64,000 nucleotides of DNA. Origin: Escherichia coli (GTDB lineage: Bacteria > Pseudomonadota > Gammaproteobacteria > Enterobacterales > Enterobacteriaceae). Location of the stretch: NCBI RefSeq assembly GCF_002854065.1, contig NZ_CP024147.1, one strand, 5' to 3'. Position numbers and translations under genes: made by a program. Under the pieces are notes generated by a model. The model had not been told where the DNA came from. It saw nothing but the letters and a program-made list of their open reading frames with translations, and did not search any database. Below are positions 5,794 to 16,954 of the stretch, piece by piece (position 1 is the stretch's first letter; every line of letters begins with the position of its first letter).

Positions 5794-6156
5794 ATGAAAA
5801 CGCTAGCGGTATTCGACCCGGCAATGTGTTGTAGCACCGGTGTCTGCGGTACTGATGTCGATCAGGCTCTGGTTGATTTTTCCGCGGATGTGCAATGGCT
5901 GAAACAACGAGGTGTTCAGGTAGATCGTTTCAATCTGGCACAGCAACCGATGAGCTTTGTCCAGAACGAGAAAGTTAAAGCATTTATTGAGGCTTCTGGT
6001 GCGGAAGGGCTGCCATTACTGTTACTGGATGGCGAAACAGTGATGGCCGGGCGTTATCCGAAACGGGCTGAACTTGCACGGTGGTTTGGAATTCCGCTGG
6101 AGAAAGTAGGATTAGCGCCTTCAGGCTGCTGCGGTGGTAATACTTCTTGTTGTTAA
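5794..6156 (+). CDS. arsD: ArsD arsenic metallochaperone
   Basis: MKTLAVFDPAMCCSTGVCG carries Cys12/13/18, and the C-terminal tail is GCCGGNTSCC. The protein is 120 aa. GAGG lies 8 nt before the ATG at 5794; the track start at 5788 is a TTG. Confidence 0.93.
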   Translation: MKTLAVFDPAMCCSTGVCGTDVDQALVDFSADVQWLKQRGVQVDRFNLAQQPMSFVQNEKVKAFIEASGAEGLPLLLLDGETVMAGRYPKRAELARWFGIPLEKVGLAPSGCCGGNTSCC

Positions 6157-6173: not shown

Positions 6174-7925
6174 ATGAAATTCTTACAGAACATCCCCCCT
6201 TATCTGTTTTTTACTGGTAAAGGAGGCGTTGGTAAAACCTCTATTTCCTGCGCCACGGCGATCCGTCTGGCAGAACAGGGTAAACGAGTGCTGCTGGTCA
6301 GTACCGATCCGGCCTCAAACGTAGGCCAGGTCTTTGGCCAGGTTATTGGCAATACTATTCAGCCAATAGCCACTGTTCCTGGATTGTCGGCACTTGAGAT
6401 TGATCCTCAGGCCGCTGCGCAACAGTACCGGGCCAGAATCGTTGACCCTATTAAAGGTGTCCTGCCTGATGACGTCGTTAGCAGCATCAACGAACAACTG
6501 TCTGGTGCATGCACAACAGAGATTGCGGCTTTTGATGAGTTTACCGGATTACTGACAGACGCCTCTTTGCTGACCCAGTTTGACCATATCATCTTTGATA
6601 CCGCGCCAACCGGCCATACTATTCGCCTTCTCCAGTTGCCAGGCGCCTGGAGCAGCTTTATTGACAGCAATCCCGAGGGCGCATCCTGCCTCGGCCCGAT
6701 GGCGGGGCTGGAAAAACAGCGTGAACAGTATGCCCATGCCGTTGAAGCACTGTCCGACCCAGCGCGTACCCGCCTGGTTTTAGTTGCCAGACTGCAAAAA
6801 TCCACCCTGCAAGAAGTCGCCCGAACTCATTTAGAACTCGCCGCAATTGGCCTTAAAAATCAGTACTTGGTCATTAATGGCGTTCTGCCCAAAACTGAAG
6901 CGGCAAACGATACACTGGCTGCGGCTATATGGGACCGTGAACAGGAGGCGCTGGCCAATCTTCCTTCTGACCTTTCCGGTCTGCCAACTGACACGTTATT
7001 CCTCCAACCACTCAATATGGTCGGCGTGGCTGCATTAAGTGGGCTTCTCTCCTCTCAGCCTGAGGCAGCATCATCTTCTGAAGAATACATTCAGCAACGA
7101 CCTGAAATTCCGTCGCTCTCAGCGTTAGTCGATGATATTGCCCGTAACGAACATGGTCTGATAATGCTAATGGGCAAAGGCGGTGTGGGGAAAACCACGA
7201 TGGCGGCAGCCATTGCCGTCAGACTGGCCGAAATGGGATTTGATGTCCATCTGACCACCTCAGATCCAGCAGCACACCTCAGCACAACCCTGAACGGTAG
7301 CCTTAACAATCTGCAGGTCAGTAGAATCGATCCTCACGAGGAAACAGAACGCTATCGTCAGCATGTTCTTGATACCAAGGGTGGAGAACTGGATGAAGCG
7401 GGTAAACGCCTGCTGGAAGAAGATTTACGCTCTCCTTGTACCGAAGAGATTGCGGTCTTCCAGGCCTTTTCACGGGTGATTCGTGAAGCGGGTAAGCGCT
7501 TCGTGGTCATGGATACGGCACCCACCGGGCATACCCTACTGCTGCTGGATGCCACCGGGGCGTATCACCGCGAAATTGCTAAGAAAATGGGCGATAAAGG
7601 CCATTTCACCACGCCAATGATGCAGCTTCAGGACCCGGAGCGAACCAAAGTGTTACTGGTCACGCTGCCGGAAACCACGCCCGTGCTTGAGGCGGCAAAT
7701 TTGCAGGCCGACCTTGAACGCGCAGGGATTCATCCCTGGGGCTGGATTATCAATAACAGCCTTTCCATTGCGGATACCCGTTCGCCGCTGCTTCGTCTGC
7801 GGGCGCAACAGGAACTTCCGCAGATCGAGAGTGTTAAACTCCAGCATGCCAGTCGCGTAGCTCTTGTTCCTGTACTGGCGTCAGAACCGACCGGCATCGA
7901 CAAACTCAAACAACTCGCTGGTTAA
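6174..7925 (+). CDS. arsA: ArsA arsenite-stimulated pump ATPase
   Basis: The 583-aa protein has two halves, each with GKGGVGKT and DTAPTGHT. The metalloid-site cysteines are in [14 protein letters not shown] and RSPCTEE. AGGAGG precedes the ATG at 6174. Confidence 0.95.
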
Positions 7926-9734: not shown

Positions 9735-10271
9735 TCAGAGCATCATGCCTGAATCCGATGGTAACGTGCTGTTCCCTTCGCCCAGATTTCGTTGCAGCAA
9801 CACTGTGTCAAGCCAACGACCATGCTTGAAGCCAATATTTTTCAGCGTACCAATCTCAGTAAATCCAACCTGCTGATGGACTTTCAGCGAACCTTGATTA
9901 TTGCTATCGCCGACAATAGCAATCATCTGCCGATAGCCGTGAGTTTCTGCCCAGGCAATGACGTAGCGCAGCAACGCTTTTCCTGTCCCCTGACGCTGTG
10001 CGTCCGGGTGAATATAAATCGAATCTTCGAGAGTGTGGCGGTAGGCGTAGCGTTCACGGTAACGAGTGAGATAACAATACCCGATAACCTTTTCTTCCTC
10101 TAACGCGACAACCCACGGTAGCGCCTGATTGCGGATCTTTTTCAGGCGGGTAAGCATCTCGTGGGTATCCGGAGGTTCAGTTTCAAAGCTGGCGGTACCG
10201 TGAAGAACATGATGGGCGTAGATATCGCGTATAGCGGGGATGTGCTTTTCTTCTGCGTTAACGATTTTCAT
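9735..10271 (-). CDS. arsN: GNAT N-acetyltransferase of the phosphinothricin-acetyltransferase (PAT/MddA) family; ArsN1-like by context
   Basis: IRDIYAHHVLHGTASFETEPP... and QRQGTGKALL...GYRQMIAIVGDSNNQGSLKVHQQVGF resemble PAT/YncA. The gene is adjacent to ars genes. Confidence 0.65.
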   Translation of the reverse strand: MKIVNAEEKHIPAIRDIYAHHVLHGTASFETEPPDTHEMLTRLKKIRNQALPWVVALEEEKVIGYCYLTRYRERYAYRHTLEDSIYIHPDAQRQGTGKALLRYVIAWAETHGYRQMIAIVGDSNNQGSLKVHQQVGFTEIGTLKNIGFKHGRWLDTVLLQRNLGEGNSTLPSDSGMML

Positions 10272-10435
10272 TGTTCTGTTCCCGTTGGCATCTTTTTCAA
10301 GGTTACTTGAAAATCCTGAGGAAAGGTAAATACAAAAGCTTATGACCCAATAAGCAGGCTAATCTTCAATCCCATCTTTTGTTTTCATTCATGCAGGGAG
10401 ACAAATATGTGCTTCCAGTATCCTTATTTTTTATG

Positions 10436-10479
10436 TTACCTTTTCCGTTATGTCTAAAATGACATAACGGAAAAGGTAA
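10436..10479. promoter_or_regulatory. Perfect 19+19 bp palindrome (6-bp spacer) overlapping the ribosome-binding site of the TauE-family gene; candidate operator or RBS-sequestering hairpin
   Basis: The sequence is TTACCTTTTCCGTTATGTC-taaaat-GACATAACGGAAAAGGTAA. It ends 4 nt before the ATG at 10484. Confidence 0.6.
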
Positions 10480-10483
10480 ACCC

Positions 10484-11308
10484 ATGTCCTCAGAATCAAA
10501 ACGGAACGGAAAAGGTTTTTTATCAGGCACGTTAATCGGTGCTTTAGGCGGCTTAATTGGCCTCGGTGGCGCTGAGTTCCGCCTTCCCGTCCTGATGGGT
10601 AGTTTCAAAATGCCGACGCTTGAAGCGGTTATTTTTAACAAAGCGATGAGCCTTACTGTTGTCGCTGTTGCTTTGATATTCCGCACAAAATCCATCGCCG
10701 TCGACCAGCTGTTTGCTCATCTTGATATTGTCATCAATTTGCTGGCCGGGAGCCTTATAGGTGCATGGTGGGCAGCAGGAAGAGCCATAAAAATGTCCCG
10801 TATTTGGCTGGACAGAACCATTCTGCTCCTGCTTGTTATCCTGTCATTCGTCATGTTTTCAGAAGCATTGATGCCTCTGCATGATAGCTCCGCTGGATTA
10901 TTCCAGCCCGGAATCGCGACCATTATTGCGGGTGTTATTGCGGGTGTTATTGCGGGTTTCTTCATCGGGAATGTTGCTGCTTTGCTGGGTGTTGCAGGGG
11001 GAGAGCTCCTGATACCAACTATCGTTATCCTTTTTGGGGCTGACATTAAACTGGCTGGCAGTTTGTCACTCATGATCAGTTTACCGACGATGATTGTGGG
11101 GTTCTCTCGCTACACTAATGCAGATGCTTTCCAGATCCTGAGAAAAGAGAAAAAACTTTTTGTGTGGATGGTCATCGGTTCCGTTATAGGTGCCGCTATT
11201 GGGGGCCTTATGCTCGGTATGTTCCCGGTAAGAGTACTTATGACTCTGTTAGGCGCGGTACTTCTTATTTCCGCGATCAAAACCTTTAAGCATACCCGGC
11301 AAAGATAA
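10484..11308 (+). CDS. TauE/SafE (DUF81) family anion-exporter-like membrane protein
   Basis: The 274-aa polytopic protein has internally duplicated G-rich motifs: GALGGLIGLGGAEFRLPVLMG and LLGVAGGELLIPTIV. Confidence 0.7.
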   Translation: MSSESKRNGKGFLSGTLIGALGGLIGLGGAEFRLPVLMGSFKMPTLEAVIFNKAMSLTVVAVALIFRTKSIAVDQLFAHLDIVINLLAGSLIGAWWAAGRAIKMSRIWLDRTILLLLVILSFVMFSEALMPLHDSSAGLFQPGIATIIAGVIAGVIAGFFIGNVAALLGVAGGELLIPTIVILFGADIKLAGSLSLMISLPTMIVGFSRYTNADAFQILRKEKKLFVWMVIGSVIGAAIGGLMLGMFPVRVLMTLLGAVLLISAIKTFKHTRQR

Positions 11309-11370
11309 TAGCCGTTTACGCTTTGGACTATTCCGCATTACAGAGAAAATGATTTCGAAAAGGTATCAGA

Positions 11371-11739
11371 ATGAAAAAGAATCCCCTTAAATCAAACTTA
11401 ATCTTAGTCAGACCGAGGATCTATATTAACGACAACATCTCGCTGGGGCCGGGGAAGGTTGACCTTTTAAGGGCGATTGATGGCTTTCACTCTCTTTCTG
11501 CGGCAGCTAAAGATTTGGGGATACCTTATAAAAAAGCATGGCTCTTAATTGACACTTTGAATAAAGGGATTGGTCAGCCAGTTGTAACCACTTCCACTGG
11601 TGGTAACAAGGGCGGTGGTACAGTTCTGACGCCATTGGGGCGTAGCCTGCTGATCTGGTATGACCAGGCCGAGGCCCACCTCAATGAGCAATCTCAGCAA
11701 CAGTTAATCGAACTTGAAAAGATTCTTTTTGGAAAATGA
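11371..11739 (+). CDS. ModE N-terminal-domain-like wHTH regulator lacking Mop/TOBE ligand domains
   Basis: SLSAAAKDLGIPYKKAWLLIDTLNKGIGQPVVTTSTGGNKGGGTVLTPLGRSLL parallels ModE SISQGAKDAGISYKSAWDAINEMN...ATGGKGGGGAVLTRYGQRL. The protein is only 122 aa. Confidence 0.7.
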   Translation: MKKNPLKSNLILVRPRIYINDNISLGPGKVDLLRAIDGFHSLSAAAKDLGIPYKKAWLLIDTLNKGIGQPVVTTSTGGNKGGGTVLTPLGRSLLIWYDQAEAHLNEQSQQQLIELEKILFGK

Positions 11740-11812: not shown

Positions 11813-13570
11813 TTACTTCGCCATTTCTTCCAGCAGGTCAATACCAACCGGCTCTTCGCTCTGTAGCGCTGTTAATGCAATACGCTTTGCATACTGCTCT
11901 TCCACATCAGAGATGAGAGGCAGCTCGCGGTTAGCTCTGGTCTTCAGGAAAGGTGAAGACGGCTCAGCAGCTGCCAGGCTGTTATTCACAACCCATGCCC
12001 ACGGCTCAATGCCAGCCCGACGCAGATCCTGCTGCAGGTTAGCGGCTTCCAGTACAGGTGTCGTTTCGGCAAGCGTCACGATAATCACCTTCGTCTTCTC
12101 CGGGTCCTGCAATTGCATCATTGGCGTCATCACATGGTCATGTGTTTGCCCCATCTGGCGCACCATTTCCCGGTGATAGGCTCCAGTCGCATCCAGTAGC
12201 AGAAGTGTGTGACCCGTTGGCGCGGTGTCCATAATGACAAAATGATCGTCTGCCTCTTTGATTATCCGCGAGAATGCCTGGAAGACGGCGATCTCTTCAG
12301 TACATGGTGAGCGGAGATCTTCTTCCAGCACCGCCAGCCCCTCAGCGTCTAATCCTTTGCCCTGATTCTCCAGTACAAAACGGCGATAACGCTCTGTCTC
12401 CACCTTCGGATCGATACGGCTGACCTGCAGATTTGGCAGCGAGCCATCCAGCGTGTAAGACAGATGTGCTGCCGGATCGGACGTGGTCAGATGGACTTTA
12501 TGACCGCGTTTTGCCAGCGATACCGCGACCGATGCTGCAACAGTCGTTTTGCCCACGCCGCCTTTCCCCATCGTCATTACCAGCCCTTTGCCTGTCAGAC
12601 TGAGTTCATCCACTAACGAGGAAAGTTTCGGTAAATCCAGAGCATTTAGCGTTGTATTGGAGAGAGACAGTGGCGCTTTGCTCTCTGTTAATAACTCTCG
12701 CAGGGCTTCCAGACCGACCAGATTAAATGGCTTCAGAGACAGCTGCGAGCGGGGAAGATTAACCAGATTATCAGGCATTGCCTGTAATGCTTTTTCTTCC
12801 CGAGCCAGAATACTTTGCGCCAGTGGATCATTTTCACCGGCAAACGGTGGCAGCACACCATTAATGGCAAGGTGTTGATGCTGCAAACCAATAGCAGAAA
12901 GCTCATCGTGCGTATGAGAAACCTCTTTCAGCGTTGAAGCCTGAGCTCGGGCAACCAGCACTAAGCGTGTGAGAGCTGCGTCGGACAGCGCTTTAACCGC
13001 ATCGGAGTACTGGTGCTGTTGTTTCTCAAGCCCTACCAGAGGTCCAAGGTTTGCAGCGGCATCAGGGTTCGCTTCGAGATAACCGCTCCAGGCTCCCGGC
13101 AATTCAAGCATGCGGATGGTGTGACCGGTTGGCGCGGTATCAAATACGATATGGTCATATTTTCCCCGCAGCTCATGATTGGTCAGCAGACCAGTAAACT
13201 CATCAAACGCAGCGATTTCCGTGGTGCATGAGCCGGAAAGCTGCTCTTCAATGCTGCTGACCACATCGGCTGGCATCAGCCCGCGAACAGGGTCGAGCAC
13301 ACGGTCACGATAGGCTTGCGCTGCAGCCATCGGATCAACTTCCATCGCGGCAAGATTTTCTACAGTACTGATATCTGTGATTCGGTGGCCGATAGTCTGG
13401 CTAAATACCTGGCCGACATTGGAAGCCGGATCGGTACTCACCAGAAGCGTTCTCTTACCCTGATCGGCCAGCCATACTGCAGTAGCACAGGCCAGGGATG
13501 TCTTACCCACTCCACCTTTACCAGTGAAGAAGATGAACGGGGGAATGTCTTTTAAAAATGGCATATTCAT
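11813..13570 (-). CDS. arsA: ArsA-family ATPase, second divergent copy lacking the Cys172 equivalent
   Basis: The protein has two GKGGVGKT / DTAPTGHT halves. SGSCTTE and RSPCTEE are present, but ANPDAAANLGP aligns with [11 protein letters not shown] of copy 1. GAGGAG precedes the ATG at 13570 (MNMPFLKD...). Confidence 0.9.
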   Translation of the reverse strand: MNMPFLKDIPPFIFFTGKGGVGKTSLACATAVWLADQGKRTLLVSTDPASNVGQVFSQTIGHRITDISTVENLAAMEVDPMAAAQAYRDRVLDPVRGLMPADVVSSIEEQLSGSCTTEIAAFDEFTGLLTNHELRGKYDHIVFDTAPTGHTIRMLELPGAWSGYLEANPDAAANLGPLVGLEKQQHQYSDAVKALSDAALTRLVLVARAQASTLKEVSHTHDELSAIGLQHQHLAINGVLPPFAGENDPLAQSILAREEKALQAMPDNLVNLPRSQLSLKPFNLVGLEALRELLTESKAPLSLSNTTLNALDLPKLSSLVDELSLTGKGLVMTMGKGGVGKTTVAASVAVSLAKRGHKVHLTTSDPAAHLSYTLDGSLPNLQVSRIDPKVETERYRRFVLENQGKGLDAEGLAVLEEDLRSPCTEEIAVFQAFSRIIKEADDHFVIMDTAPTGHTLLLLDATGAYHREMVRQMGQTHDHVMTPMMQLQDPEKTKVIIVTLAETTPVLEAANLQQDLRRAGIEPWAWVVNNSLAAAEPSSPFLKTRANRELPLISDVEEQYAKRIALTALQSEEPVGIDLLEEMAK

Positions 13571-13590: not shown

Positions 13591-13953
13591 TTAAGGCATA
13601 CGTGGAATGCTGCAGCAACGCGGTTGCGTACTGTCTTCACTCCAGTCCTGAGTTAGCGGAATATCTGCCCAACGGGCGATATCTTCACGAGTCGGCAGTT
13701 TGCCTGCCATCACCAGCTTGCCGTCGAGCAAGGTGACAGGGAGGGATTCCATCCCTGATGTGTTCATAAACTCTTTGATTACAGGGGTATTCAGGAACTG
13801 CTGCGGGTTTTTCGCAAGGCTGTAGCGCTGAATATCAACGCCATTCTTTTTCGCCCATTCGGCGCTGGCATTCCATTTGACGGCTTCGTCGCTCACCACA
13901 ACGCTGCTGGTTGCGCAGCAGCCTGCTGCTTCAAAGATCTCAATTTTTGACAT
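13591..13953 (-). CDS. arsD: ArsD-family metallochaperone, second divergent copy (Cys12-Cys13 kept, residue 18 is Val)
   Basis: The 120-aa protein begins MSKIEIFEAAGCCATSSVVV. Its thioredoxin-like core aligns to ArsD (LPVTLLDGKLVMAGKLPTREDIARW). The C-terminus is PRCCSIP. Confidence 0.8.
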   Translation of the reverse strand: MSKIEIFEAAGCCATSSVVVSDEAVKWNASAEWAKKNGVDIQRYSLAKNPQQFLNTPVIKEFMNTSGMESLPVTLLDGKLVMAGKLPTREDIARWADIPLTQDWSEDSTQPRCCSIPRMP

Positions 13954-14028: not shown

Positions 14029-14574
14029 TTAATTCATTTTTTTGTGGCAGCAGACAAAAGATGTGTCATCCGCCTCAATCTGGCAGAGTTCTGTCATCGT
14101 CTCTTTCAGGTGTTTTCTGGCCCGAAGTAGTCGGGATTTAAACGCTGTAAGCGTGATTCCCCATTCATCGGCCAGGGACTGCTGGGGACGCCGGTTAAGG
14201 TCGGACTCTTCAATCAACCACCGCTCATCTTCGGGTAAAGCCTGTAATGTTTCAGGCAGGCAAATATCCAGTGTTGAGATTGCATCAAGGGATGCGTCTG
14301 TTAATAGGGCATCTTCTTCCAGCTCAACAAACGCCCTGGTGGTTCGGTACTCATCAATCAGCAGATTCCTTGCTACCCGATACAACCAGGCTCGCGGATT
14401 TTCCATCTCACAAAAAATGTCTGAATGGGCTCGGGCACGCAGGAAAAGGTCTTGCAGAAGGTCTGCTGCTTTTTCGCTATCGCCTGTCTTCGATATCAGA
14501 AAGCGAGAAAATTCGCCTTCATGCTGCCGCCAGAACACGCTCATACAGCTGTTGAATGCTGTTATGTCACTCAT
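14029..14574 (-). CDS. ECF-type sigma-70 family factor with a C-terminal Cys-x10-Cys-Cys extension
   Basis: Region 2 is DLLQDLFLRA...AWLYRVARNLLIDEYR. Region 4 is LPEDERWLIEESDLNRRPQQSLADEWGITLTAFKSRLLRARKHL. The tail is LCQIEADDTSFVCCHKKMN. The likely ATG is at 14574, 8 nt after the arsH stop. Confidence 0.8.
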   Translation of the reverse strand: MSDITAFNSCMSVFWRQHEGEFSRFLISKTGDSEKAADLLQDLFLRARAHSDIFCEMENPRAWLYRVARNLLIDEYRTTRAFVELEEDALLTDASLDAISTLDICLPETLQALPEDERWLIEESDLNRRPQQSLADEWGITLTAFKSRLLRARKHLKETMTELCQIEADDTSFVCCHKKMN

Positions 14575-15391: not shown

Positions 15392-15715
15392 TTATCCATT
15401 TTTGCCAGCGGGTTCCGTAACATCTGTTTTACTGTTTACACAGCACTCTTCACGTAAGAATTCGATGATAGCTTCCAGTATTTCGTATTGAGAGACGCAC
15501 ATGAGCGTTCGACTCTCCCGGTTTTGTGTGACGAGTCCTACTGATACTAAGGCTGAAATATGATGACTTAACGTTGATGAGGGAATGCCAAGCTGCTTTT
15601 GCAATTCACCTACAGGCAAACCTTGTTCTCCAGCTTTTACAAGATGTTTGAATATGAACAAACGGGTCGGGTGACCCAGCTCTTTTAGTGCTTTAGCTAC
15701 TTCTTCCAATTGCAT
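15392..15715 (-). CDS. arsR: ArsR/SmtB-family repressor, second type (C-terminal vicinal Cys pair, no CVC site)
   Basis: HPTRLFIFKHLVKAGEQGLPVGELQKQLGIPSSTLSHHISALVSVGLV is an ArsR-type wHTH. REECCVNS lies near the C-terminus. The protein is 107 aa. Confidence 0.85.
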   Translation of the reverse strand: MQLEEVAKALKELGHPTRLFIFKHLVKAGEQGLPVGELQKQLGIPSSTLSHHISALVSVGLVTQNRESRTLMCVSQYEILEAIIEFLREECCVNSKTDVTEPAGKNG

Positions 15716-15736
15716 GTGACAACCCTCTGTCTAATG

Positions 15737-15795
15737 ATATTTCGATAATACCAGAAATATCTTGACCAGAATTATATTTCGATTATTCTAGAAAT
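15737..15795. promoter_or_regulatory. Divergent promoter region with two tandem 22-24 bp operator-like repeats, 37 bp apart
   Basis: ATATTTCGATAATACCAGAAAT is at 15737-15758 and ATATTTCGATTATTCTAGAAAT at 15774-15795. Each has the internal dyad ATTTC-N10-GAAAT. TTGACC at 15762-15767 lies between them. Confidence 0.6.
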
Positions 15796-15820: not shown

Positions 15821-16954
15821 ATGAATAGTTGGATTTCTATGCTGCAAGATGCCGCAGAGATGTTTTTGTTTTTGGCCGTCGAGCTATCTTTGCTGTTTAT
15901 TGTCATCAGTGCCGGTGTGAGCCTGATAAGGCAAAAGGTCCCGGACCATAAAATCCAGCAATTGTTGGGGGCGAAAAAAGGAAAAGGCTACCTGCTGGCC
16001 TCGTTGTTGGGAGCCGTTACCCCTTTCTGTAGTTGCTCAACAATTCCAATGCTACGAGGGTTGTTGTCGGCGAAAGCAGGGTTTGGTCCGACACTCACTT
16101 TTTTGTTTGTTTCACCGTTGCTTAATCCCATTATCGTGGGGTTAATGTGGGTTACCTTTGGCTGGAAAGTAACTTTGTTGTACGCGATCATCGCTGCCGG
16201 TGTCTCAGTCCTTGCCAGTATCGTATTGGATTTACTAGGATTTGAACGTCATATTGTTGATCACAAAAACTCAGCATCAAGTGGTTGCGCCACCAAATGT
16301 GATGATTCCGAAGCTTCGGTAAAAACGTCGGCGGGTTCCAGTTGTTGCAGCACTAGCTCGACTCAATTGCCTGTAAAAACGAGTTGCTGTACTTCATCAG
16401 CGAACCCCATAATTAACTTAAGGACGGTAAAGAACGAGCAGAACGTATCAACGTGTTGTTCATCAATATCATCTGAACAACCAGCTGTTAGCTGTTGCAG
16501 CAGCGAGAATCTGGGCAATGTGAATCTCACACCGAATACCACCTCTGGCCCAATAAAGTTAGCTATGAAAGATGCCTTACAGCAGTTTAAGGATGTTCTG
16601 CCTTATCTTTTGTTAGGTGTATTAATAGGTTCATTTATTTATGGCTTTATCCCTTCAGAGTGGATTGCAGCTCATGCCGGAGCAGATAATCCCTTAGCCA
16701 TACCGCTGAGTGCAGTTGTTGGTATTCCGTTGTATATACGCGCAGAGGCAGTGATACCACTTGCATCAGTGCTGATGACTAAAGGAATGGGCCTGGGGGC
16801 ATTAATGGCCTTGATAATCGGTAGTGCTGGAGCGAGTTTGACAGAAGTAATACTGCTTAAATCAATGTTCAGAATGCCTATGATAGTCGCTTTTCTGACA
16901 GTTATCTTAGGTATGGCAATTCTAATGGGTTATCTGACTCAATTCTTGTTTTAA
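15821..16954 (+). CDS. ArsP-like (UPF0718/DUF318) permease with a Ser/Cys-rich central loop
   Basis: The motif TPFCSCSTIPML lies in an early TM segment and the protein has multiple TM helices. A ~75-aa loop carries GCATKC plus four (S/T)CC(S/T) pairs. The ATG at 15821 is preceded by AGAGGG; the track start at 15803 is a TTG. Confidence 0.7.
   Translation: MNSWISMLQDAAEMFLFLAVELSLLFIVISAGVSLIRQKVPDHKIQQLLGAKKGKGYLLASLLGAVTPFCSCSTIPMLRGLLSAKAGFGPTLTFLFVSPLLNPIIVGLMWVTFGWKVTLLYAIIAAGVSVLASIVLDLLGFERHIVDHKNSASSGCATKCDDSEASVKTSAGSSCCSTSSTQLPVKTSCCTSSANPIINLRTVKNEQNVSTCCSSISSEQPAVSCCSSENLGNVNLTPNTTSGPIKLAMKDALQQFKDVLPYLLLGVLIGSFIYGFIPSEWIAAHAGADNPLAIPLSAVVGIPLYIRAEAVIPLASVLMTKGMGLGALMALIIGSAGASLTEVILLKSMFRMPMIVAFLTVILGMAILMGYLTQFLF

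Follow-up and report, generated by a model that had tools for sequence, protein, structure and literature searches.

Conserved cysteine pairs in the hypervariable central loop of a long-form ArsP permease from an Escherichia coli ars island

The DNA analysed here is a stretch of 64,000 nucleotides (the window) from Escherichia coli contig NZ_CP024147.1, which carries an ars island with an arsP-like permease gene. Between its two membrane halves, the encoded protein has a hydrophilic loop of 101 residues containing a CxxxC motif and four adjacent cysteine pairs (CC units). The thiols of this loop, and essentially the thiols alone within the linker, are under purifying selection. We propose, at a probability of roughly 0.4, that this multi-dithiol loop picks up trivalent (especially organic) arsenicals on the cytoplasmic side and passes them on to Cys70 and Cys72 of the membrane domain. 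An original prediction, made from the sequence alone, had described the CxxxC motif and four (S/T)CC(S/T) units in an ArsP-like permease, and the sequence reads exactly as quoted there; the span that it gave, 16286-16498, runs from the first through the last loop cysteine.

Cysteine pattern, distribution and selection in the central loop

The 377-amino acid (aa) protein translated from the open reading frame (ORF) agrees exactly with the sequence previously quoted, and its assignment to the ArsP family is confirmed. It matches PF03773 (ArsP_1) with an E-value of 8.6e-55 and a score of 186.4 bits, compared with a cut-off (gathering score) of 32.3. Residues 10-375 cover positions 4-294 of the 294-position profile with one long insertion, and ArsP_1 is the sole Pfam match at E ≤ 0.01. 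The other hallmarks of this family (TC 2.A.119) are also present: a C(S/T)C motif within a membrane segment (tPF-CSC, "cluster 2"; PMC4435449), here the separate TPFCSCS motif that had also been predicted, and two homologous four-segment halves with a hydrophilic loop between them (PMC7176098). Helices modelled with AlphaFold2 (AF2) at residues 3-138 and 244-376 show matching break patterns, and short motifs are repeated between the halves (PDHKIQQLLGA/PSEWIAAHAGA and GAVTPF/GIPLY). The cysteine-rich loop lies between these halves, in agreement with its predicted position between two transmembrane (TM) bundles. No variation is seen at F69, C70 or P76 among 55 distant relatives, and C72 is nearly invariant (at least 90%). 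The nearest named NCBIfam models, both equivalogs, are the SO_0444 Cu/Zn efflux transporter (NF033936; 123 bits versus a cut-off of 300) and SaoE (NF040736; 91.7 bits in two separate stretches versus a cut-off of 325), and the permease belongs to neither.

Measured start to start, the CC units are 14, 23 and 13 residues apart, a correction to the 14-26 residues given originally. When the 101 residues of this loop were shuffled 200,000 times, four or more CC were obtained in 0.5% of cases. The CCxxCC hairpin of tetracysteine biarsenical tags is absent at this spacing; the tags and the loop have only their chemistry in common, with one arsenic per CC pair. The loop is also not metallothionein-like, with 10% cysteine and no match to any metallothionein family model. 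An origin of the CC units by tandem duplication was rejected: neither Tandem Repeats Finder nor repeat searches revealed any repeated DNA apart from a 13-nucleotide word, AGYTGTTGCAGCA, the only one to recur. The short mid-loop motif PIINLRTVKN, which contains no cysteine, may be a linear interaction motif. In distant relatives, proline-led stretches of alternating hydrophobic residues akin to this motif, such as PLISLNTIQTAGSCC and SPVTLITLPTIQAAGSCC, are seen before CC units.

Alignment with homologues shows that the insert is widespread and not private to this strain. A cysteine-rich loop with 1-5 CC is present in all of the 120 closest database clusters (65-98% identity, total length 298-377 aa), whose sources are Salmonella, Enterobacter, Proteus, E. 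fergusonii, Citrobacter and Aeromonas. Conservation in this set is 64% at loop cysteines, compared with 22% at the other loop residues and 86% in the core. The original prediction had held that a loop absent or unconserved in functional orthologues would speak against a role; what is found is a loop of unconserved sequence with conserved cysteines. Variation among these alleles takes the form of in-frame insertions and deletions that add or remove CC units. P0010 (345 aa, 274 member sequences) has two CC units fewer than the 377-aa form and P0015 (359 aa, 235 member sequences) has one fewer; CC unit 1 is missing from both. These two alleles are clean in-frame deletions only, and represent natural CC copy-number variation in common alleles.

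Nonsynonymous to synonymous rate ratios (dN/dS) were calculated at the codon level against the more divergent 377-aa alleles of Salmonella and Enterobacter. The allele of IncI1 plasmid R64 was set aside for this purpose, as it has too few loop differences and its loop looks mosaic. The ratio is 0.04-0.05 for the membrane core versus 0.64-1.39 for non-cysteine loop positions. Cysteines are kept at 10/10 and 9/11 positions in these comparisons despite synonymous changes at retained cysteine codons, and the two apparent losses are in fact one pair shifted in register by one residue. Compared with the core on either side, the loop shows much less synonymous divergence (dS), both for R64 (0.03 versus 0.20) and for the Salmonella and Enterobacter alleles (0.2 versus 0.7; loci compared, L092, L093 and L094), which suggests either that this segment has recombined as part of a mosaic or that its codons are constrained.

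The cysteine pairs extend well beyond the closest alleles. A profile search recovered homologues of approximately 50% identity in Vibrio, Photobacterium, Shewanella and other taxa; 116/120 of them have at least one CC. C156 is nearly invariant in their alignment, and the typical pattern, "SSCGTSCGD ... (T/S)SCC ...", is visible in the consensus. Across a family-wide set of 95 full-length representatives (clusters ≤50% identical), loop length is 22-131 aa, and short loops are mostly without cysteine; the overall range among relatives is 22-150 aa. The 31 long loops (≥60 aa) contain 6.2% cysteine, compared with 1.1% elsewhere in the protein, and 50 CC were observed in them versus 10.2 ± 2.8 expected from within-loop shuffles (maximum of 23 in 2000). 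CxC pairs replace CC in some lineages.

We also surveyed 80 GTDB genomes for a subfamily defined by "TPFCSCST" and the loop start "FERYV(K/R)". The minimal loop of this subfamily (33 aa) retains only C-x3-C, as in GCGTTCG. At the other extreme, a 150-aa loop from a Desulfovibrionaceae metagenome-assembled genome has nine CC, such that this hypervariable loop carries 0-9 CC units across homologues. Because minimal loops keep C-x3-C, the membrane-proximal CxxxC is, judging from these sequences, the ancestral loop element, to which CC units have been added by lineage.

Predicted fold and membrane sidedness of the loop

AF2 was run with 65 sequences. The membrane core is modelled confidently, with a predicted local distance difference test (pLDDT) score of about 90. 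Loop residues 150-237 have a pLDDT below 50 and no secondary structure, and the loop is predicted to be intrinsically disordered. The helix carrying the TPFCSCS motif is interrupted at residues 67-70 (TPFC), with further helix breaks at 101-102 (an "LNP" motif), 305-307 and 338-339. No solved structure was found by sequence, as there is no PDB match at E ≤ 1. The fold comparison listed figures of 12.2 for LaINDY, 12.1 for Drosophila INDY, 11.8 for both ArsB (10tp) and Pho90, 10.7 for AtDiT1, 8.2 for NaS1 and 8.1 for AbgT. The fold of the ion-transporter (IT) superfamily, which includes ArsB, DASS/INDY and AbgT, is characterised by inverted repeats that each contain a broken helix and a re-entrant helical hairpin.

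The published ArsP topology is 4+4 parallel (PMC7176098). We set aside a simple eight-TM topology of this kind because it leaves the family-wide lysine and arginine (K/R) counts balanced between the two sides (about 8-9 versus 8). A model with one non-crossing hairpin per half is preferred on this basis: K/R counts become about 13.5 versus 3.3 between sides, with the K/R-rich loops on the same side (4.4 for loop 1, about 6 for the central-loop flanks and 2.6 for loop 7) and only 0.5-0.7 in the opposite-side loops.

Relatives with variant architectures bear on the same question. A Pfam scan of ten longer relatives revealed no extra fused domain that could be used as a topology anchor. P0222, P0242 and P0268, in which the central loop is short and free of cysteine, have instead a K/R-flanked, cysteine-rich N-terminal tail together with one extra TM segment. 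In P0168, whose central loop is likewise short and cysteine-free, a MerT-like "TCCGFP" helix precedes four (S/T)SCC units, which have KSKS and KKKFPFKK at their flanks, and an extra TM segment is again present. A tail combined with an extra TM segment would put the cysteine-rich part opposite the N-terminus of the ArsP domain and therefore on the side of the central loop. A third group (P0157, P0174 and P0184) has His/Asp-rich N-terminal tails of approximately 70 aa, no extra TM segment and a variant TPLCTFS motif. The original prediction had left the side of the membrane to topology prediction; from fold similarity, K/R bias and variant architectures, the central loop is probably cytoplasmic. 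In the same model, the N and C termini would be outside and the CSC hairpin would enter from the cytoplasm.

Proposed function, genomic setting and competing explanations

An adjacent cysteine pair binds one trivalent arsenic in ArsD (Cys12-13), in AfArsR (Cys95-96) and in biarsenical tags. Organic trivalent arsenicals, R-As(III), require exactly two thiolates; As(III) prefers three. In the proposed mechanism, each of the five dithiols (the CxxxC and four CC units) would bind one trivalent arsenical by thiol exchange, taking it from glutathione or protein thiols. R-As(III) compounds such as methylarsenite would be the natural ligands, since exactly two bonds to sulfur are on offer. The flexible tethered loop would raise the local concentration of toxin where the transporter opens to the cytoplasm and hand it to Cys70/Cys72, at the tip of a re-entrant hairpin that faces the cytoplasm, for export. 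The number of CC units would be evolutionarily adjustable, with the thiols needed and the spacer sequence not. ArsP has been found to export methylarsenite (MAs(III)) and reduced roxarsone (Rox(III)) but not As(III) (PMC6205960). The one family member to have been assayed, that of Campylobacter jejuni, exports R-As(III) by way of a cysteine pair; for the permease studied here, the neighbouring arsH and two-cysteine ArsR are no more than suggestive of such substrates. Of the roles suggested in the original prediction, a substrate antenna or a sink is reasonable given the selection on cysteines, the predicted disorder and the cytoplasmic side; docking of ArsD2 or ArsA2 did not hold up, as discussed below.

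A more elaborate version of this proposal, which we offer tentatively, is that the loop is a built-in disordered metallochaperone. R-As(III) would move from station to station by stepwise thiol exchange, from cytosolic thiols along a dithiol chain of variable copy number to Cys70/Cys72. The transporter would have an ArsB/DASS-like elevator fold instead of a 4+4 TOG fold, and the chain would be a convergent accessory across the family, other lineages having reached the same solution with a cysteine-rich N-terminal tail and an extra transmembrane helix.

Several observations weigh against capture and delivery. The number of CC falls to 0-1 in some clearly orthologous proteins, and alleles deleted in-frame for two CC units are common, so many CC units are dispensable. 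In 21/24 subfamily loci no other ars gene is nearby; with SO_0444 exporting Cu/Zn, the ligand could be another thiophilic metal. The arsenic transporters with cysteine-rich cytosolic segments that have been studied use them as sensors or regulators, and deletion of the Marchantia ACR3 N-domain left resistance intact. His-rich tails without an extra TM segment would be outside under the inferred topology, which is unusual for an exporter. Finally, a Foldseek search with the model gave no significant PDB match, and the topology rests on a predicted model.

The main rival, although unlikely, is that the loop is an arsenical sensor or gate, in which thiol binding compacts or cross-links the linker and so switches the transporter or alters a membrane-protein interaction, with no feeding of substrate. 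Other arsenic exporters offer a direct precedent. In yeast Acr3, methylated As(III) binds cysteines of a sizeable, cysteine-rich loop in the cytoplasm that regulates Fps1, and As(III) on three N-domain cysteines of Marchantia ACR3 alters conformation and activity. The ArsP loop joins what are modelled as two inverted repeats, so that its compaction could affect domain movement, and a non-cysteine motif, PIINLRTVKN, is conserved within it. However, the number, spacing and register of the CC units vary freely and the spacers are near neutral; additive capture sites therefore fit better than a defined switch. Transcription, in addition, is already under the adjacent ArsR2.

ArsR2 is the partner that recurs with the permease. 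A closely related ArsR-family gene adjoins the permease gene in 24/24 subfamily loci, mostly divergently, and the motif "(E/D)(E/Q)CC" is kept in the regulators of all 24. No other recurrent neighbour was found in these loci, two apparent clusters being antisense ORFs inside arsP. The best PDB relative of ArsR2 is AfArsR (6j05): the CC of ArsR2 aligns to Cys95/96, and the third ligand, Cys102, is absent. A further conserved cysteine of ArsR2 (C73, in RTLxC) is located 17 residues upstream, and a few orthologous regulators have a third cysteine in AfArsR-like spacing. On these grounds we dropped the idea of ArsR2 as a strictly two-cysteine regulator, and its selectivity for MAs(III) is hypothetical only for the same reasons. 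Two direct repeats fill the 105-base pair (bp) arsR2-arsP intergenic region and are likely candidate ArsR2 operators for both divergent promoters, judging from their position and dyad sequences.

The working unit proposed here is a two-gene module of a divergent AfArsR-type repressor and arsP that does not require ArsA2 or ArsD2. This module is next to arsH in ars islands here and in Enterobacter and Pseudoalteromonas. The regulator-permease pair occurs by itself in the Aeromonas veronii group, with arsRBC in E. fergusonii, with arsRDABC in Citrobacter, with arsH in Enterobacter and after an IS66 in Salmonella (P0004); the permease is alone in Vibrio (P0349).

It is rather improbable that the loop instead serves soft metals (Cu(I), Zn, Cd or Hg), the protein being a general exporter of thiophilic metals recruited into some Enterobacterales ars islands. 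This explanation would account for the 21 loci with no other ars gene and for the nearest named models, of which SO_0444 is needed under Zn and Cu stress; the fusion of P0168 to a MerT-like CC helix, and the His-rich tails or His/Cys loops of other relatives, also point in this direction. Scores for both SO_0444 and SaoE are far under their cut-offs, however, and the constant partner regulator is closest to an As(III) sensor with its CC in the identical position. Some orthologous regulators restore the third cysteine in the spacing of that sensor, and the gene in the window sits in an ars island.

A neutral low-complexity linker with tolerated cysteines, or a passive sink unlinked to transport, is very unlikely. 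Non-cysteine positions are neutral, length changes by in-frame insertions and deletions, and many family members work with cysteine-free loops of 22-40 aa, but long loops are enriched in cysteine with CC five times above expectation, specific cysteines are kept in 111-118/120 homologues, and lineages have independently placed similar cysteine-rich segments on the same side of the membrane.

The poorest candidate of all is the ArsD2/ArsA2 docking and hand-off site of the original prediction, with ArsP as the membrane partner of an ATP-driven pump: arsA2 and arsD2 are in an operon divergent from arsP with no arsB or acr3 of their own, ArsA-ArsP coupling was proposed from co-evolution by Castillo & Saier, and the two-thiol sites of ArsA2 and ArsD2 would suit the same R-As(III) ligands, but ArsP and ArsA2/ArsD2 each occur without the other, and the loop therefore cannot generally be a docking site. 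Four-CC 377-aa alleles are found with only arsR2, or with arsR2 and arsH (Salmonella, Enterobacter), and neither ArsA nor ArsD accompanies the CC-loop homologues of Aeromonas, E. fergusonii and Vibrio as a partner. Where ArsA is adjacent, in Aeromonas aquatica and Ignatzschineria, it is canonical and has its own Acr3 or ArsB. The trio of a sigma factor gene, arsD2 and arsA2 is likewise found most often without arsP, in an SGI-4-like element of Salmonella (7457 blocks of the collection contain this ArsA2 allele), and is very common in monophasic Salmonella; the ArsA2 allele found there belongs to a sigma-arsD2-arsA2-GNAT block beside arsRDABC, without arsP, arsR2 or arsH.

In this second ars module, every metalloid site (in ArsA2, ArsD2 and ArsR2) has two thiols, compared with three in the canonical proteins. 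The ArsA2 pattern of C115 and C423 with Asn174 is present in R64 and in 120/120 retrieved homologues, all of which are ≥93% identical. These residues suggest a protein set tuned to R-As(III), which binds only two thiols; we found no description of a two-thiol ars module in the literature. The sigma gene of the conserved trio (locus L095, 7997-10758) encodes a SigZ-like extracytoplasmic function (ECF) sigma factor that ends ...CQIEADDTSFVCCHKKMN, with a C-terminal CC. Through this cysteine-rich tail, the sigma factor itself may respond to metals or metalloids. Similar sigma genes adjoin ArsP-family genes in several unrelated marine bacteria (sigma-gene loci listed: L015, L019, L042, L059, L060, L064, L067 and L076), and no anti-sigma gene was seen.

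The chromosome of the wastewater isolate E. coli CUWW06 (NZ_CP182139.1) matches the window with 100% identity, and the gene is annotated there only as "permease". The order of the island is arsRDABC, an arsN1-like GNAT gene, TauE/TSUP, a ModE-like winged helix-turn-helix (wHTH) gene, arsA2, arsD2, the ECF sigma gene, arsH and arsR2, followed by the divergent arsP and then integrases. The same cluster is found on R64, with 94.7% DNA identity over a matched stretch equal to 89% of the query; Citrobacter plasmids also have it, with 96% identity over the same 89%. Salmonella, E. coli, Citrobacter, Enterobacter and Aeromonas carry long-form arsP in ars islands and on plasmids such as R64, and many marine gammaproteobacteria have it as well.

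In CUWW06 (locus L001, 4425287-4458288), gorA and the native dinQ/ars region lie on either side of the inserted island. IS2 borders it at one end, and a run of integrase-like and hypothetical genes at the other (window about 17413-23013). IS1 has apparently interrupted the native chromosomal ars locus, of which a remnant of arsC and a truncated regulator are left. The GNAT protein encoded between the two ars modules has its best match, below cut-off, in the arsinothricin-resistance family B; a TauE/SafE (TSUP) membrane protein and a small ModE-type winged-helix protein are encoded in the same interval. TauE is also found downstream of arsP in the Salmonella locus L093.

Table 1. Coordinates of the features discussed, counted from the first nucleotide of the window
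Feature	Coordinates	Strand	Remarks
arsP-like permease gene	15821-16954	+	377 aa; PGAP "permease" WP_416522280.1; PF03773 match
TPFCSCS motif, aa 67-73 (Cys70, Cys72)	16019-16039	+	helix break; presumed substrate site
Central hydrophilic loop, aa 142-242	16244-16546	+	101 residues; 23 Ser, 11 Thr, 10 Cys, 9 Asn
CxxxC (Cys156, Cys160)	16286-16300	+	C156 in 114/120 closest homologues
CC unit 1 (Cys175-176), S-CC-S	16343-16348	+	confined to closest 377-aa alleles
CC unit 2 (Cys189-190), S-CC-T	16385-16390	+	C189 in 111/120, C190 in 89/120 homologues
PIINLRTVKN, aa 196-205	16406-16435	+	short non-Cys motif in mid-loop; kept in Enterobacterales alleles
CC unit 3 (Cys212-213), T-CC-S	16454-16459	+	C212 in 79/120, C213 in 36/120 homologues
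CC unit 4 (Cys225-226), S-CC-S	16493-16498	+	best-conserved pair; C225 in 118/120, C226 in 115/120
Two 26-nucleotide direct repeats	15733-15758, 15770-15795		each an ATTTC-N10-GAAAT dyad; repeat search; 85% identical
arsR2 regulator gene	15392-15715	-	C-terminal EECC site; HTH_20, ArsR/SmtB family match; divergent from arsP
SigZ-like ECF sigma factor gene	14029-14574	-	C-terminal CC
arsD2	13591-13953	-	C12, C13; no C18
arsA2	11813-13570	-	C115, C423; Asn174 where canonical Cys172
Genes between the ars modules	9735-11739		arsN1-like GNAT (-), TauE/TSUP (+), ModE-like wHTH (+)
arsA1	6174-7925		three-thiol site complete
arsD1	5794-6156		three-thiol site complete

Relation to known systems

To our knowledge, no exporter other than ArsP is dedicated to trivalent organoarsenicals (methylarsenite and reduced roxarsone among them), and we know of studies on the short Campylobacter form only. 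If the loop captures or senses arsenicals, it would illustrate how an exporter can gain effective affinity for a toxin bound to thiols with no need of a separate chaperone. The loop would also represent a natural, tunable poly-dithiol peptide that binds arsenicals, of use in biosensing or sequestration, and the number of CC units would be a simple genetic handle for comparing resistance alleles. The analysis further provides a testable topology and fold for the ArsP family, which has no solved structure.

The insertion itself has been recorded before. Castillo & Saier (2010) described a long form of ArsP of approximately 400 aa, with a hydrophilic insertion of approximately 100 aa between transmembrane segments (TMS) 4 and 5, in a cluster from Aeromonas, E. 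coli and Yersinia. They reported "no clues as to the function", and their paper does not describe the insertion's composition, its cysteine pattern, its topology or what it does. The permease studied here is this long form, with 377 aa, an insertion of 101 residues (aa 142-242) without any hydrophobic stretch, and the same taxa. The ArsA-ArsP coupling proposed by these authors is unsupported here by gene co-occurrence. The conserved cysteine-pair content described here is conceptually near the Cys/His-rich accessory segments of other metal transporters; a search of the searchable literature, which did not cover the primary ArsP biochemistry, found no description of the cysteine-pair content, conservation, disorder or sidedness of the insertion.

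Campylobacter jejuni ArsP (TC 2.A.119) resembles the permease in its PF03773 domain, in its membrane C-S-C in a tPFCSC context and in its location in an ars locus with an ArsR-family regulator. The Campylobacterota homologues, in contrast, are 313-322 aa in length and have loops of 40-57 aa with 0-2 cysteines, compared with 10 cysteines in 101 aa here, and this clade is only about 32-36% identical to the permease. The view in the original prediction that characterised ArsP proteins lack such an insert is plausible.

Acr3 is likewise an arsenic exporter with a cytosolic cysteine-rich appendage (a loop in Saccharomyces cerevisiae, an N-domain in Marchantia) that binds As(III) or methylated As(III). 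It differs in belonging to an unrelated family (BART/ACR3) and in the regulatory roles of its appendages (Fps1 control, trafficking). In Marchantia the domain has a folded structure and its three cysteines are dispersed, unlike the predicted disorder and adjacent pairs of the ArsP loop. In ArsD (Cys12-13, 112-113 and 119-120), vicinal pairs carried by flexible segments take up a thiophilic toxin and transfer it to a buried cysteine site, and the C-terminal CC tail of MerA captures and hands off in a similar manner. These are soluble proteins or enzyme tails, whereas the relay proposed here would be built into the transporter. SO_0444 (NF033936) and SaoE (NF040736) share with the permease its superfamily, the CSC motif and the family theme of CC or CU in metal handling, but differ from it in genomic context, regulator and scores.

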